Assembly (NCBI GenBank): GCA_942491855.1
Contig: CALOCL010000041.1
Coordinates: 81,024 to 145,023 of the forward strand
Direction of reading: 5' to 3'
Length of the DNA: 64,000 nucleotides
Source of the DNA: an uncultured Bacteroidales bacterium
Lineage (GTDB): Bacteria; Bacteroidota; Bacteroidia; Bacteroidales; GCA-2711565
The notes under the pieces were generated by a model that had not been told where the DNA came from, ran no database searches, and worked only from the letters and a program-made list of their open reading frames with translations. Position numbers and translations under genes: made by a program. Shown here one piece after another: positions 14,752-22,389 of this stretch. Numbering within the stretch: the first letter of the stretch is position 1; each line of letters opens with the position of its first letter.

Positions 14752-15479
14752 ATGAATATAGCGATTATCGGCTATGGCCGAATGGGACAGGAGATTGAAA
14801 AAATCTCATTAAAACGAGGTCATCAAATTGTAATTAAAATTGATGAAAATAATCTCGATGAGATATATAAAATGAATTCTACGAAAATGTGGATGTTGCC
14901 ATTGAATTTACCAATCCTGATTCCGCCTATAGAAATATCTTAAATTGCTTTCAGGCTAATATTCCTGTTATAAGTGGAACTACAGGTTGGACAGCTAAGC
15001 TTGCTGAATTAAAAGAACGAAGTTTTAATGAAAAGAAAGGGTTTTTATATGCTTCAAATTTTAGTGTTGGTGTAAATGTTTTATTTGCGTTGAATAAAAA
15101 ACTTGCCCAAATCATGAATAATTATCCAGCATATACCGCAAATACTCAGGAAACACATCATACTAAAAAGCTCGACAGTCCGAGCGGAACAGCCATAACA
15201 CTTGCCGAGGGGATTATTCAAAATTCGAATAGTCTGGAAAACTGGGCTGAAACGAATAATCCGGATAAAAGCACCTTGGGCATTCAAGCTTTTCGTGAGG
15301 GAGAGGTTCCGGGAATACACAAAGTGATTTATGAGTCTTCTTTTGATACACTTCAGATTTCACATTCTGCTAAGAGCCGAGAAGGATTTGCTATAGGTGC
15401 AGTTTTAGCAGCCGAGTTTTTACAGCACAAGAGCAGTTATTACGAAATGAAAGATGTATTGCATCTCAATACACTTTAG
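14752..15479 (+). pseudogene. dapB: 4-hydroxy-tetrahydrodipicolinate reductase, frameshifted in this sequence (probably an assembly error)
   Basis: IIGYGRMG N-terminus in one frame; DVAIEFT...GTTGW...SNFSVG...ETHHTKKLDSPSGTA in another. Adding one A to the A4 run at 14869-14872 joins them (...IYKNEFYENVDVAIEF). Confidence 0.9.
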
Positions 15480-17217: not shown

Positions 17218-17250
17218 TGCCATCAGTTTACTGTTGGCTTTTTATTTTAA
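17218..17250 (+). terminator. probable intrinsic terminator; marks the left border of the AT-rich cassette
   Basis: GCCATCAG-TTTA-CTGTTGGC followed by TTTTTATTTT. Confidence 0.6.
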
Positions 17251-17384
17251 AAAGATGTATTTATTTTAATCATAATTCAGATTAAACAGTAGAGGTTTTA
17301 GAAACAATACTATTTGGTCGTACTACGTAGACTGTATTTTTTAGTACCTTGCAATATTATTACCTGTAAATATTACATACTACT

Positions 17385-18467
17385 TTGAGCCATCCAAATC
17401 ATAAATACGAATTTCTAAGATTTAAATCTGCTTTACGGAAAAGGAGGAAATCTAATTTAAAAAGAAAAAGCAGAAATATTCAGAGAAACAAAAGTAAGGG
17501 TTACAAGGCTCCCCGAGTTTCAAAAAATATTTACACTAATCGTACTCAAAACATAACGATTTACGGTGGAAAGAATTTTACTTTATTTGAAAATCAAGAT
17601 AGCCTCATAAACGTTCTTAGTTCATTAAATGACTTGAAAAAAGAGAAAAGAAAAATATTAATTGTGAATATAGATCTTTCAAATATAGTGCAGATTGATA
17701 TTGGTGCTATTAGCTTATTATTTGCAAAGATTCATGAGGTAAAGCAAACTAGAACTATAAAAATTTGGGGCACAATGCCAAAACATCCTGGCTGTCAGGA
17801 AAAATTTAAAGACTCTGGTTTTCTAGATAATATGAAGGATTTAAACGGAAATAAATTCACAAAAACCTCTAGGAATTTTTTCTTTAATATAGGAACCGAT
17901 ACAACACTTAATGAAGTTGTTGGAAAGACAATTAAGAAAACTATAAAAGAAATAACTGGAGTTGAAGAAAATTACCAACCTGTTTATACTATCGCTCAAG
18001 AAATGTGCGCTAATTCTGTAGAATGGGCAAATGATGTTGATAGTCGAAGCAAAAATTGGTTCATGGGTGTTAACTATGTGCTTGACAATGGACAAACAAG
18101 TGTTAACTTTACATTGACTGATATAGGGTTTGGTATTTTAAATACGTTGGAGAGAGATTATAAAAATAAATTTTCTGATTTTTTTGAAACAGCTAGCAAA
18201 ATTGATATTTTATATAAAGCCTTCGAGGGAAAGTATGGATCTAAATCAGGTGATATAAACAGGAATAAAGGATTGCCCCAAATAAAAAAAACCTTTGAGA
18301 GCAACTTTATATTCGATTTAAAAGTATATACAAATAATGTATTTTTGGATTTTAAAAATTATGAAAACTCAAAAGTATTGGAGAAAAAAGTACCAGGAAC
18401 ATTTTATACTTGGAGTATAAATAAAAACTGTATTGAATTATGGAAACAACAAATGATATCAAATTAA
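17385..18467 (+). CDS. STAS-like domain fused to a GHKL (histidine-kinase-like) ATPase, with a very basic N-terminus
   Basis: IDLSNIVQIDIGAISLL...G.MP....SGF (STAS-like); N box EMCANSVEWA (E206/N210); G1 box TDIGFGI (D246); G2-like RNKGLP; G3 PGTFY. No His-phosphoacceptor DHp segment is recognisable. The TTG start is uncertain. Confidence 0.75.
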   Translation: MSHPNHKYEFLRFKSALRKRRKSNLKRKSRNIQRNKSKGYKAPRVSKNIYTNRTQNITIYGGKNFTLFENQDSLINVLSSLNDLKKEKRKILIVNIDLSNIVQIDIGAISLLFAKIHEVKQTRTIKIWGTMPKHPGCQEKFKDSGFLDNMKDLNGNKFTKTSRNFFFNIGTDTTLNEVVGKTIKKTIKEITGVEENYQPVYTIAQEMCANSVEWANDVDSRSKNWFMGVNYVLDNGQTSVNFTLTDIGFGILNTLERDYKNKFSDFFETASKIDILYKAFEGKYGSKSGDINRNKGLPQIKKTFESNFIFDLKVYTNNVFLDFKNYENSKVLEKKVPGTFYTWSINKNCIELWKQQMISN

Positions 18468-18874
18468 ACATACTTGATTTCTCGGAATATCCTGGACCTA
18501 GATATTGTAGACAGGGAAAGGATTCCGGAGAAGAATATTATCACAATGTATTAAACCAATTCTTTGTGAAAGCATATAAAGATGATTGTATGCTGACAAT
18601 TAATCTTGATAATACGGCGGGTTATCTCTCCTCCTTCATTGACGAAGCCTTCGGAAATCTTGTATATGACTTCTCAGCTGAGGAAGTTAGTAAGAGATTA
18701 AAAATAGTATCTAACCAAGAGCCAGATTGGATTAATATGATTGAGAATGATATTTATGTTAAATGGAATATGAGGCGAATTGAGCAATTACAACCAAAAA
18801 AAACAATAAAACATGAAGGATGGTATAAATTAATAGATAACAATCTGGAGGTTAAAGTATGGATTTCCATTTAA
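18440..18874 (+). CDS. DUF4325-type stand-alone STAS-like protein
   Basis: PGPRY...SGEEY...LDNTAGYLSSFIDEAFGNL is the characteristic DUF4325 pattern; overlaps the upstream ORF by 28 nt. Confidence 0.8.
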   Translation: METTNDIKLNILDFSEYPGPRYCRQGKDSGEEYYHNVLNQFFVKAYKDDCMLTINLDNTAGYLSSFIDEAFGNLVYDFSAEEVSKRLKIVSNQEPDWINMIENDIYVKWNMRRIEQLQPKKTIKHEGWYKLIDNNLEVKVWISI

Positions 18875-19353
18875 TATTTTGTCTTACCATTTCAGATATT
18901 ATCACAATTTTTGAAATTCTAGTCACAGCTATCCTTGGTGTCTGGATTGCGGTTTTTGTGCAAAAAAATTTCACTATTAATCGAAACTTAAAACAATATT
19001 TCATTAAGGAAATTGAAGTTATTAAAGAAAAACAATCCTTGTTCTTTGATGAATTATATTCTGGTAAAATTTCGTCTAAGAACATAGCGGAATGGTTTAA
19101 GGTTATGACCATAAGAATAGAAACGTTTCAAGATTTAGCCACCAATGAATATAAAATAGAGCCGAAAGTCTTATTGCACCATAATGAAATTAAACACTTT
19201 GTAACAAGTAGACCAGAATTAAGTGACCAGTTCAATGAGTCACAGGTTCTACTAAATGTTTCTTCAAAAAATGAATTGTTAAATCTATATGGACGCATTA
19301 CTAAATCATTGGTTCAGTTAGTAGTTGATATTAATAAAGCAAAAAAAAGGTGA
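18859..19353 (+). CDS. hypothetical single-pass membrane protein
   Basis: One hydrophobic helix (IITIFEILVTAILGVWIAVFV) then a helical soluble domain; overlaps the upstream ORF by 16 nt. Confidence 0.7.
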   Translation: MDFHLIFCLTISDIITIFEILVTAILGVWIAVFVQKNFTINRNLKQYFIKEIEVIKEKQSLFFDELYSGKISSKNIAEWFKVMTIRIETFQDLATNEYKIEPKVLLHHNEIKHFVTSRPELSDQFNESQVLLNVSSKNELLNLYGRITKSLVQLVVDINKAKKR

Positions 19354-19465: not shown

Positions 19466-22389
19466 ATGCTCCTAAACTGCCATACCTATTTCTCTTATAA
19501 ATTCGGTACGCTCTCCATTGAGGAGTTGATTGAGGAGGGCGTAAGCAAAGATTTTGAAGAGTTATGTTTAACTGACATCAACAGTACTTCTGCTGTCTTC
19601 GATTTTATCCGCTTAGGTAAAGCGAAAGGAATCAGGCCTGTCATCGGTATCGATTTCAGAAATGGTGTTGATCAAAAATACATTGGCATTGCCAGAAATA
19701 ATGAAGGTTTCAGAGAATTAAATGAACACCTTACATTCCACTCACATCAAGAAATTGATTTTGAGAATAAAGCTCCTGAATTTGAAAATTCTTTTGTGAT
19801 TTATCCTTTTGATGCGAAACTAATCCGGCAACTAAAAGAAAATGAATTTATCGGAATCAAACCCTGGGAGTTGAACCAACTTTTGCGATCGGTCTGGGAA
19901 AATAAGCCTGATAAATTGGTCATTTTAAATCCTGTAACATTTCGTTACCAACGCGATTTTAATGTTCATCGATTACTGAGAACCATTGACAAAAAATACC
20001 TTTCTTTCGCAATTGTCGACCGGTGGGAGGGGGAATCCTCTGGAGATTTGCGTGGGGGGGGTGTGCACCTTTGTGTTTGGGGAAAGGTATCCACAACTCA
20101 TTCAAAAACCAAGTTTTTGTGAAGAGCAGCGTTGGGTTGATAGGATTGTTCAAAAAAAAAGCCACTTATACGGGTACACGTTCTACGGATTTTGAACTTC
20201 ACAAAAGAAGTGAAAGAGCAGGATTTGGAAAAGCATCCACTGCGGTTCGTGACCGAATTAATACCGAATTAAAAGTGATTAAGGATTTGGACTTTTGTTC
20301 TTATTTTTTAATTAATTGGGATTTGGTGAAATTCGCTCGGGAACAGGGTTTTCACTACGTAGGCCGAGGGAGCGGAGCAAACAGCATGCTGGCCTACCTG
20401 CTCCGAATCACCGATGTAGACCCCATCGAACTGGATTTGTATTTTGAGCGATTTATCAACCCCTCACGAAGCAGTCCGCCTGATTTCGATTTAGATTTTG
20501 CTTCCCGAGAACGGGACACGGTTACCAAGTATATTTTTGATCGACATGGCTGGGATCACACGGCTTTAGTTGGTTCTTACAATACTTTTCAGTACAGATC
20601 CATGATTCGGGAACTGGGTAAAGTATTCGGTCTGCCTCCTGAAGAAATTGATGAATTGCAAGCCAATAAAGCCCGTAAAGATTTGGATCATATCGGGAAA
20701 TTGGTCCTGTCTTACGGACAACTGATCAAAGATTTTCCAAGTCATTTAAGCGTGCATTCCAGCGGAATCTTAATTTCTGAAGAACCCATCTCGGCATACA
20801 GTGCCACTATCATGCCGCCAAAAGGTTTTCCGACTACTCACTTTAGTATGCTTGAAGCTGAGGATATTGGTTTGGCTAAATTTGACATACTTGGTCAGAG
20901 AGGAATTAGCAAGATCAAGGATACGGTTGATATGGTTTCGGAGCGGCAAAAAATCAATATCGACATCCATCAACTCGAGCAATTTAAAAAGGATAAAAAA
21001 GTTCGATCACTCTTAAAACAAGGCATGGCCATTGGTTGTTTTTACATCGAATCGCCTGCTATGCGGATGTTGCTCAAAAAGCTGGAGGCTGAGGATTACC
21101 TGAGATTGGTCGCAGCAAGTTCTATCATCCGTCCCGGTGTGGCTAAAAGTGGTATGATGCGTGAATACATCTTAAGGTACCGTGATCCGGCCAGGAGGGA
21201 AGAAGCAAGAAAAGCTTTACCCGAGCTTTACAAATTACTGGAAGAAACCTACGGGGTGATGGTTTATCAGGAGGATGTGATTAAAGTAGCGCATCTTTTT
21301 GCAAATTTAACTTTGGCCGAAGCGGATGTTTTGCGAAGAGGCATGTCGTGGAAGTTTAAGCAGCGCAATGAGTTTCACAAAGTGAGAGAGAAGTTTTTTG
21401 AGAACTGTCATTTAAAAGGCTATCGAAATGAAACCATTCAAGCCATCTGGGATCAAATTGAAAGTTTTGCAAACTATGCTTTTTCAAAGGGGCATTCAGC
21501 CTCATACGCCGTTGAAAGCTTTCAGGCACTTTATTTGAAAGCCTATCATCCGCTTGAATACATGACAGCCACTGTGAACAATGGCGGCGGTTTTTACCAT
21601 GCCGAACTTTATTTGCATGAAGCCAGAATGCACGGAGCTGAAATTGAAGCACCCTGCATTAATCGAGGTGATGGGCCTTGTTTGTTAATTGGTAAGCAGA
21701 TTTTTATTGGTTTTGCATTCATCAAAAATTTTGAAAGCAATAGCATTCGAAATATTTTAAGGGAGCAGCAAAATGGAAAATTTACTTCACTTGAAGGATT
21801 TATCAAAAGGGTTGCCATTAGTCTGGAGCAGTTAATCATTTTGATAAAAGTGGGAGCATTTCGATCCATAAATCCCAATAAAAAAGAATTGCTCTGGGAA
21901 GCACACCTTCATCTTTCAAAAGGTAAAAAATCAAAACCTTCAAAGCAATTATTTGATGAACATGCCAAACGATACAAATTACCGGATCTTACCCATAACC
22001 CCATCGAAGATGCTTTTGATGAAATTGAACTGCTGGGTTATCCTGTTAAAACATCTCCTTTTGATTTACTGATTGAGAAACCAGACATTAAAATAAGAGC
22101 TAAGGATTTGGAATCAAGAATAGGGAAGCAGGTTGAAATTTTAGGCTACCTCGTTCACGTTAAAGGAACCATGACTGGTGAGGGCAAACGCATGAGCTTT
22201 GGCGTATTTACCGATTTGGATGGTCATTGGATTGATACGGTTCAGTTCCCAAACACAGCACGTCAGTATCCTTTTCAAGGTCGGGGTTGTTATGCTTTAA
22301 AAGGAAAGGTAGTTGAAGAATTCGGTTTTATCAGCATAGAAGTTAGCTACCATAAACGCTTAATCAATTTAAATATTGAGGATGTTTAG
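19466..22389 (+). CDS. dnaE: short second-copy DNA polymerase III alpha (DnaE2-like), with a garbled, multiply frameshifted segment at about 19990-20240
   Basis: PHP domain (LNCHTYFS...TDINST), GRGSGANS, LYFERF, PPDFDLDF, KFDILGQRG, YAFSKGHSASY and a C-terminal OB fold. The total span is about 975 codons, split over three frames. Confidence 0.85.

Follow-up and report, generated by a model that had tools for sequence, protein, structure and literature searches.

What is a cassette of three overlapping, AT-rich genes doing between a serine-hydrolase-like gene and a dnaE-type gene in the genome of an uncultured Bacteroidales bacterium? The cassette lies in a stretch of 64,000 nucleotides (here called the window, to which all positions refer unless another locus is named; contig CALOCL010000041.1 of assembly GCA_942491855.1, positions 81,024 to 145,023). 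It consists of three plus-strand open reading frames (ORFs), ORF1 at 17385-18467, ORF2 at 18440-18874, and ORF3 at 18859-19353, with overlaps of 28 nt between ORF1 and ORF2 and 16 nt between ORF2 and ORF3. We conclude, at a probability of about 80%, that the cassette is a mobile conflict module whose sensor pair is homologous to that of the CapKS and VapKSC systems described by Chambers, Rani, Min, Villa & Corbett (EMBO J 2026; PMC13373217). The original prediction for this locus, made from the DNA letters alone, was a STAS-GHKL kinase, a DUF4325 STAS partner, and a single-pass membrane protein forming a candidate partner-switching defence system, and it knew of no characterised system of such make-up. 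The prediction proves largely right, but that last statement is outdated for the sensor pair: a three-gene relative, VapKSC, has been characterised and has a PIN nuclease in third place.

ORF1 encodes a protein of 360 aa with a TTG start and an isoelectric point (pI) of 9.7. The protein itself has no match in Pfam, NCBIfam, or PADLOC, members of its family match the Pfam domains STAS (17 of 32) and HATPase_c_2 (15 of 32) weakly, and neither ORF1 nor ORF2 has a significant sequence match among PDB chains; the kinship of ORF1 to SpoIIAB and STAS proteins is visible only by fold and profile comparison. In Foldseek, its AlphaFold2 model (predicted local distance difference test, pLDDT, 86) matches SpoIIAB (1tid_C; probability 1.0, template modelling score 0.71), the GHKL part also matching CheA P4 and the LvrB CA domain, and separate matches are to the STAS proteins 3lkl, RsbS 6jhk, and MlaB, and also to 6m36. 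Since the model matches both anti-sigma kinase/CA domains and STAS structures, we regard ORF1 as a STAS-GHKL fusion. The STAS-like domain, delimited by motifs, the MlaB STAS alignment, Pfam, AlphaFold2, and Foldseek, spans about residues 52-150 (17538-17834, plus strand), and the GHKL kinase/ATPase domain, delimited by invariant motifs and Foldseek, about residues 160-360 (17862-18464, plus strand).

The GHKL boxes that the original prediction took to be intact (E206/N210, D246-x-G-x-G, and PGT) hold up in the family. The domain comprises N-box E206/N210, G1 box D246-x-G-x-G, lid R293-x-x-G296-L-P, and G338-T339, with E206, N210, D246, G248, G250, R293, G296, P298, G338, and T339 invariant in 32 ORF1-family sequences, as are D105 and G107 of the D-I-G motif in the STAS-like domain, a motif that the MlaB STAS alignment also spans. 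The predicted catalytic motifs of ORF1 are therefore intact. Anti-sigma antagonists carry a phosphorylatable D-S-x-G at the position of D-I-G, and because of this replacement the STAS domain of ORF1 is probably not itself a substrate. When the ORF1 family profile was compared by hhalign with the sequences in the supplementary model files of PMC13373217, from which VapK, VapS, and CapK were taken, the best profile match was CapK (E-value 2.5e-6, probability 89%, 190 columns), and VapK was matched at an E-value of 4.4e-5 over 176 columns. The relationship is remote, at 18-21% identity, and the motifs in common are spread from the latter half of the STAS domain through the GHKL lid.

At its N terminus, ORF1 carries a strongly basic helix (residues 1-50, 17385-17534, plus strand) with 18 K/R residues against 1 D/E. 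This helix is kept across the family with the consensus LRxxKxERxRRKSxxKKxxRN (R18 and N31 at least 90% conserved), is modelled at residues 6-35 with a pLDDT of about 95, and might serve in nucleic-acid binding or in regulation. Among phage protein families, ORF1 matches phrog_3364 of PHROGs, which is of unknown function, over nearly its full length (E-value 9.4e-20).

ORF2, the STAS partner, is an acidic protein of 144 aa (pI 4.95), and its predicted membership of the DUF4325-type STAS proteins is borne out by Pfam (PF14213, E-value 9.8e-10). VapS belongs to the same Pfam family (E-value 2.7e-17), and hhalign places the ORF2 family on VapS ungapped with an offset of 16, so that VapS S48 falls on ORF2 S64. 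A serine pair, S64/S65 (codons at 18629-18634, plus strand), had been proposed as a feature of ORF2, and the family alignment makes it the candidate phospho-acceptor. Both serines are present, and only S65 is invariant, in all 53 unique family sequences; position 64 varies, with S in 44, P in 7, and T in 2. The C-terminal extension of ORF2, about residues 95-144, is conserved in the family alignment as well. ORF2 also matches the C terminus of phrog_5816, a 441-position profile (E-value 2.8e-6), a match that hints at DUF4325 being fused to larger phage proteins as well.

ORF2 is presumed to be the kinase substrate and the switch. For the kinase-to-STAS logic that had been proposed on the model of anti-sigma kinases, the homologues now supply an experimental precedent: CapK, an HTH-STAS-GHKL kinase (HTH, helix-turn-helix) activated by single-stranded DNA (ssDNA), phosphorylates a conserved serine of CapS, a repressor of STAS-winged-helix-turn-helix (STAS-wHTH) type, and thereby de-represses adjacent immune operons, and VapK and VapS control VapC (PMC13373217). 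The vapKSC operon encodes the STAS-GHKL kinase VapK, the small STAS antitoxin VapS with a C-terminal helix, and the PIN toxin VapC, which is neutralised by VapS and let go by the phosphomimetic VapS S48E (PMC13373217).

The three genes of the cassette make up one unit, as predicted. Loci were collected from metagenomes, IMG/VR, and individual look-ups, and their ORFs were searched with profiles of the three proteins; a word-indexed search found one ORF3 relative, and the ORF3 profile was then built from locus-derived sequences. Among the 63 loci whose sequence continues for 1 kb or more past the end of the kinase gene, 62, which span 44 kinase clusters at 90% identity, have the kinase gene followed by the DUF4325 gene and then by an ORF3-family gene, always in this order and overlapping or abutting, so that the overlapping layout of the window recurs at homologous loci. 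The sole exception (locus L130, 466-2659) has a DDE_Tnp_1/DUF4372 transposase after kinase residue 306 and neither a DUF4325 gene nor a membrane-protein gene; this kinase copy has been inactivated by an insertion sequence element. The same triad is present in the one more distant kinase representative that was sampled. At the five loci with gene-by-gene Pfam tables, neither a sigma factor nor a PP2C phosphatase was found inside the cassette, as had also been noted for the window.

The family is large. A word-indexed search yielded 45 kinase clusters, as if the family were rare, an impression rejected by the full-library profile search, which gives 2,801 cluster representatives (50% identity) at E <= 1e-3 and 931 at E <= 1e-30, the best 150 being almost all full-length. 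The cassette is common in Bacteroidota. Searched by tblastn, ORF1 finds nothing among GenBank phages and only a weak Leptospira ATP-binding protein among plasmids.

In the window, the cassette is accessory and not part of the core genome. The closest genome found, the Bacteroidales metagenome-assembled genome OY787449.1 (locus L006), is syntenic on both sides, with flanks of 71-79% DNA identity and a neighbouring protein that is 88% identical, and its slot between the hydrolase gene and dnaE (L006 11208-13229) lacks the cassette and holds unrelated genes, in agreement with the prediction of an accessory element. These are a 166-aa membrane ORF with a weak DUF6082 match and a gene on the other strand for a CDGSH iron-binding zinc-finger protein of 79 aa. 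The 166-aa ORF was considered as a diverged ORF3 and rejected, as BLASTP shows no similarity. Because OY787449.1 carries different cargo here, the hydrolase-dnaE slot is a variable spot.

The composition and edges of the locus fit the layout that had been described, three overlapping ORFs between a terminator and dnaE. As expected of a cassette said to be AT-richer than its neighbours, its GC content is 29.8% against 36.0% for the window (standard deviation 2.2% among windows of the same size) and about 40% for the flanking genes; no other 2 kb of the 64 kb are as poor in GC, and each of the ten 2-kb windows with the least GC overlaps the cassette. On the left, a terminator-like hairpin on the plus strand (17219-17250; GCCATCAG-TTTA-CTGTTGGC followed by a T-run; RNAfold dG -8.9 kcal/mol) lies just past the stop codon of the upstream serine-hydrolase-like gene, and was missed by a simple terminator scan because of one stem mismatch. 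Similarity to OY787449.1 stops at 17243, within this hairpin, which is the left edge of the variable slot. On the right, the dnaE-type gene begins at 19466. No convincing flanking repeats or target-site duplications were found around the cassette.

Elsewhere, the cassette turns up beside defence and mobility genes. At locus L002 (158-17128; JGI 3300076802), it comes directly after a Type I restriction-modification (R-M) operon into which a GmrSD-like Type IV restriction gene has been inserted, and it is followed by a transposase, DUF3987/primase-like genes, and a tyrosine integrase, a region that looks like an integrative element loaded with defence genes. Another locus has the cassette next to a DpnII R-M system, more methylases, and a SocA/Panacea antitoxin-type gene, and yet another between CfrBI R-M and AbiJ-like genes. 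In a survey of 253 proteins within 6 kb of the cassette, the recurring R-M neighbours were N6_Mtase, N6_N4_Mtase, ResIII, HsdM_N, Methylase_S, and Eco57I by Pfam, and Type I and II R-M, mad2, and PDC-S05 by PADLOC; polysaccharide-biosynthesis genes were recurrent too. By a conservative count, R-M genes lie within 10 kb at at least 7 of 26 well-flanked loci (at least 27%). Thus the proposed link to defence islands stands in the sense that R-M, Abi, and mobile neighbours recur, and falls short in the sense that it is partial and that PADLOC is silent on ORF1 and ORF2; the association with defence genes is real but partial. CapKS, for its part, is found upstream of CBASS, Bub, Thoeris, and other operons and often adjoins R-M systems, and 36% of vapKSC operons are within 10 kb of a known defence gene (PMC13373217).

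Temperate phages carry the cassette too. There are 14 matches on IMG/VR viral contigs. In two prophage lineages (L159 4227-13279 and L102 8600-14213, on metagenome and viral contigs from clusters with several human-gut assemblies), the cassette stands at the end of the late region: in one it comes after tail-fibre, holin, and amidase genes, and in the other, which is the largest cluster (17 loci, several of them from human-gut metagenomes), it lies between endolysin and integrase. A slot after the lysis genes or beside the integrase is a classic moron position in temperate phages. These placements raise the question of whether the cassette is a phage lysis-timing device, with ORF3 a holin- or antiholin-like protein under kinase control and the chromosomal copies remnants, an idea encouraged by the small size and membrane location of ORF3 and by the lysis genes (holin, endolysin/amidase) next to the triad in two prophage lineages. 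We judge it highly improbable: most loci, including the window, have no phage genes nearby, the prophages concerned already have their own holin, and selection keeps the triad intact outside prophages.

In their accessory regions, some temperate phages carry analogous triads whose gene order and sizes match ORF1-ORF2-ORF3 and whose products are annotated only as hypothetical proteins. In Marinobacter phage AS1 (MK088078.1; L164 1880-3806), AS1_41, AS1_40, and AS1_39 sit beside cro/cI: AS1_41 is a kinase-like protein of 371 aa with a basic N terminus that matches the ORF1 profile at an E-value of 5e-13, AS1_40 is a DUF4325 protein, and AS1_39 (159 aa) has one N-terminal hydrophobic helix and no detectable sequence similarity to ORF3. 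In Francisella phage KIRK, the published gene table lists Fhv_0046-0048, between repressor and integrase, as a 293-aa hypothetical protein, a DUF4325 protein, and a transmembrane hypothetical protein. Finally, Burkholderia phage vB_E188 (L165 3001-4208) and Marinitoga phage MPV1 (L166 2911-4264) have a STAS-GHKL kinase and a DUF4325 protein beside integrase genes, without an obvious third gene. A BrnT/BrnA toxin-antitoxin pair lies near the kinase-STAS pair of vB_E188.

This mobility bears on the most conventional explanation, that the pair is a partner switch of the SpoIIAB/SpoIIAA or RsbW/RsbV type acting on a sigma factor or regulator encoded elsewhere. The fold matches to SpoIIAB and STAS antagonists are what one would expect of such a switch, JGI labels some ORF1 relatives 'anti-anti-sigma / anti-sigma regulatory factor', and sigma-70 domains occur in 2 of 113 neighbour proteins. 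Yet at none of 62 loci does the cassette include a gene for a sigma factor or PP2C, the closest relative lacks it in the syntenic slot, and it moves among unrelated contexts, phage genomes included. Its kinase, moreover, is fused to a STAS domain of its own, as in CapK and VapK and unlike SpoIIAB. A sigma-factor switch is thus very improbable.

The presumed output or effector of the cassette is ORF3. ORF3 (164 aa) is, as had been recognised, a single-pass membrane protein by hydropathy, AlphaFold2, and family alignment, with one hydrophobic segment at about residues 14-34 (18898-18960; Kyte-Doolittle 19-residue maximum 2.49). The AlphaFold2 model (pLDDT 83) is all helical: a long helix (11-68) has the membrane segment at its start, and helices 73-98, 103-123, and 134-160 pack with it into a four-helix bundle. 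Because K/R residues follow the membrane helix, the bundle is probably cytoplasmic, in an N-out/C-in topology. No library among Pfam, NCBIfam, PADLOC, and PHROGs names ORF3, and none of the four gives a PIN match; a weak PADLOC match to Cas3a2 (E-value 0.0024) was judged to be chance. Foldseek against PDB and BFVD viral models gave no significant match, and any named fold for ORF3 was rejected, as the search returns only generic helical bundles.

A plain helical bundle without toxin-like features could also be no effector at all. ORF3 might instead be a sensor or anchor that holds ORF1 and ORF2 at the inner membrane, where phage DNA enters, with the kinase, acting on phage or host proteins, as output or with an injection block or superinfection exclusion as the result; the extra basic N-terminal helix of ORF1 agrees with such a role, and so does the occurrence of the cassette at moron positions of prophages, which often harbour exclusion genes. 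Against it, both characterised relatives deliver their output through the STAS protein and not through the kinase (PMC13373217), the third protein of AS1 resembles ORF3 in its membrane-anchored architecture but not detectably in sequence, and the two-gene phage forms have no third gene. We consider this alternative unlikely.

Within the conflict-module reading, which takes the cassette for a self-contained system of anti-phage defence or of toxin-antitoxin-like type, we lean towards a mechanism in which the kinase gates the membrane protein, modelled on VapKSC. The serine kinase ORF1 would be idle until a trigger, possibly a nucleic-acid signal of infection or DNA damage, appears. In the resting cell, acidic ORF2 would bind the cytoplasmic helical bundle of ORF3 and keep ORF3 harmless. 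Upon the trigger, ORF1 would phosphorylate ORF2 at the invariant Ser65, or at its neighbour Ser64, and ORF2 would let go; freed ORF3 would then act on the membrane, and growth would stop before the phage cycle is completed. The direction of phosphotransfer, the binding of ORF2 to ORF3, the toxicity of ORF3, the trigger, and the defence phenotype are all steps that we infer.

Several findings weigh against this account. Many copies of the cassette are found among polysaccharide-biosynthesis genes or in ordinary chromosomal surroundings, recognisable R-M neighbours are found at only about a quarter to a third of loci, and the models of PADLOC-DB 2.0.0 match neither ORF1 nor ORF2. The cassette encodes no phosphatase to reset the switch. 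ORF3 has no detectable similarity to a known toxin, pore-former, or holin, and is assigned the effector role because of its operon position and by elimination. On the sensing side, Q103 of ORF1, the equivalent of the ssDNA-stacking F54 of VapK, is variable, and there is no confident alignment of an aromatic residue; because of this variability, the trigger of ORF1 may differ from that of CapK. F66 of ORF1 (F in 28 of the 31 sequences covering it), in 'GKNFTLFEN', resembles W68 of CapK, the ssDNA-stacking residue there, in 'GDAWIDEN', a likeness at motif level that lies beyond the extent of the hhalign alignment.

The same observations can be turned towards a module without a dedicated anti-phage role, either a toxin-antitoxin-like addiction module for mobile elements or a general stress module. 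The cassette sits on prophages, on integrase islands, and in variable slots, many loci have no defence neighbours, and the authors of the VapKSC study call the boundary between stress response and defence blurred (PMC13373217). On the other side, the vapKSC operon does protect against phage, by about 2 logs against phage Bas42 (PMC13373217), and R-M, Abi, and Panacea-antitoxin genes recur as neighbours of the cassette. This alternative, which seems to us quite improbable, overlaps the kinase-gated mechanism and differs from it in selective benefit only.

Of the surrounding features, the AT-rich region upstream of the cassette (17251-17384, plus strand, 23% GC) is presumed to carry its own promoter. 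A sigma-70 promoter scan upstream of the cassette gave matches no more frequent than in shuffled sequence, and the Bacteroidetes -7 motif TAnnTTTG was not found there. Downstream, the dnaE-type gene (19466-22389) is split into ORFs of 218 aa and 788 aa, compared with an intact 980-aa gene in the relative; at the break (20003-20142), about 140 G-rich nt unrelated to the relative's gene replace residues 180-228, and the frame shifts. Possible explanations of this break are a pseudogene, a local rearrangement, and an assembly artefact. A dapB-like gene (14752-15479) is likewise split, into overlapping ORFs of 63 aa and 196 aa, by a 2-nt insertion relative to OY787449.1 at around 14880-14890. Two broken housekeeping genes within 6 kb suggest assembly indel errors rather than real decay.

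The CapK/CapS sensor pair, described in 2026, so far has two outputs, a repressor and a PIN toxin (PMC13373217). If the kinase does gate ORF3, a membrane protein would be a third output class and would strengthen the view of the kinase-STAS pair as a portable sensor fitted to different effectors, a general plug-in for a transcription factor, a nuclease, or a membrane protein. The system is compact, at about 2 kb, and the membrane action of ORF3, a protein without known relatives, would add a new type of effector. Moreover, prophages from human-gut metagenomes carry the cassette, which may thus influence how phages and their hosts interact in the gut.

How, then, does the cassette compare with known systems? 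In SpoIIAB/SpoIIAA and RsbW/RsbV, phosphorylation of a STAS serine changes the binding partners. The cassette shares with them the fold of the GHKL serine kinase and that of the STAS substrate, and would share this logic. In contrast to them, it has no sigma factor or PP2C phosphatase, its kinase is fused to a non-phosphorylatable (D-I-G) STAS domain, and as a mobile, accessory element it does not belong to a core developmental or stress regulon.

With CapK, ORF1 has in common the motifs GF[FL]DH, the N-box, D-x-G-x-GI..TLKR, and R-G/K-L-G/P. E206/N210 of ORF1 align with 'ELIGNVRDH' of CapK and 'EIYANSFEH' of VapK, N210 lying in an ANS[VF]EH motif common to ORF1 and VapK and in the GN motif around N218 of CapK, a catalytic Asn targeted by mutation in that study (PMC13373217). 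In both systems the kinase gene is directly followed by the STAS substrate gene, and both are often beside R-M genes. The differences lie at the two ends of the pathway. CapK has an N-terminal HTH where ORF1 has the basic helix, and activation by ssDNA has been shown for CapK only; CapS is a wHTH transcriptional repressor, whereas ORF2 has no DNA-binding domain and no immune operon downstream.

VapKSC offers the closer parallel in layout, with three genes ordered kinase, STAS protein, and output, and with a STAS-GHKL kinase that has no HTH. VapS, like ORF2, is a small member of DUF4325 that is extended at its C terminus and has a conserved serine where helix 2 begins. However, identity is only about 18%, VapS S48 corresponds to S64 of ORF2 while VapS has Pro at the position of S65, a one-residue displacement of the invariant serine, the C-terminal extensions of the two proteins are not alignable, and VapK has no counterpart of the 50-residue basic N-terminal helix of ORF1. 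Above all, the third gene encodes a membrane-anchored four-helix-bundle protein here and a PIN nuclease in VapKSC. Because its third gene is not a PIN nuclease, the cassette stands outside VapKSC in the strict sense; a membrane-protein variant is mentioned neither in PMC13373217 nor in its supplementary tables, and we found no other paper describing one. We tentatively suggest, as a possibility that falls short of a probable conclusion, that the cassette represents a distinct and widespread defence family of Bacteroidota and temperate phages, in which a CapK-like switch gates a new membrane effector and a different trigger is sensed through the basic helix that stands in place of the CapK HTH.

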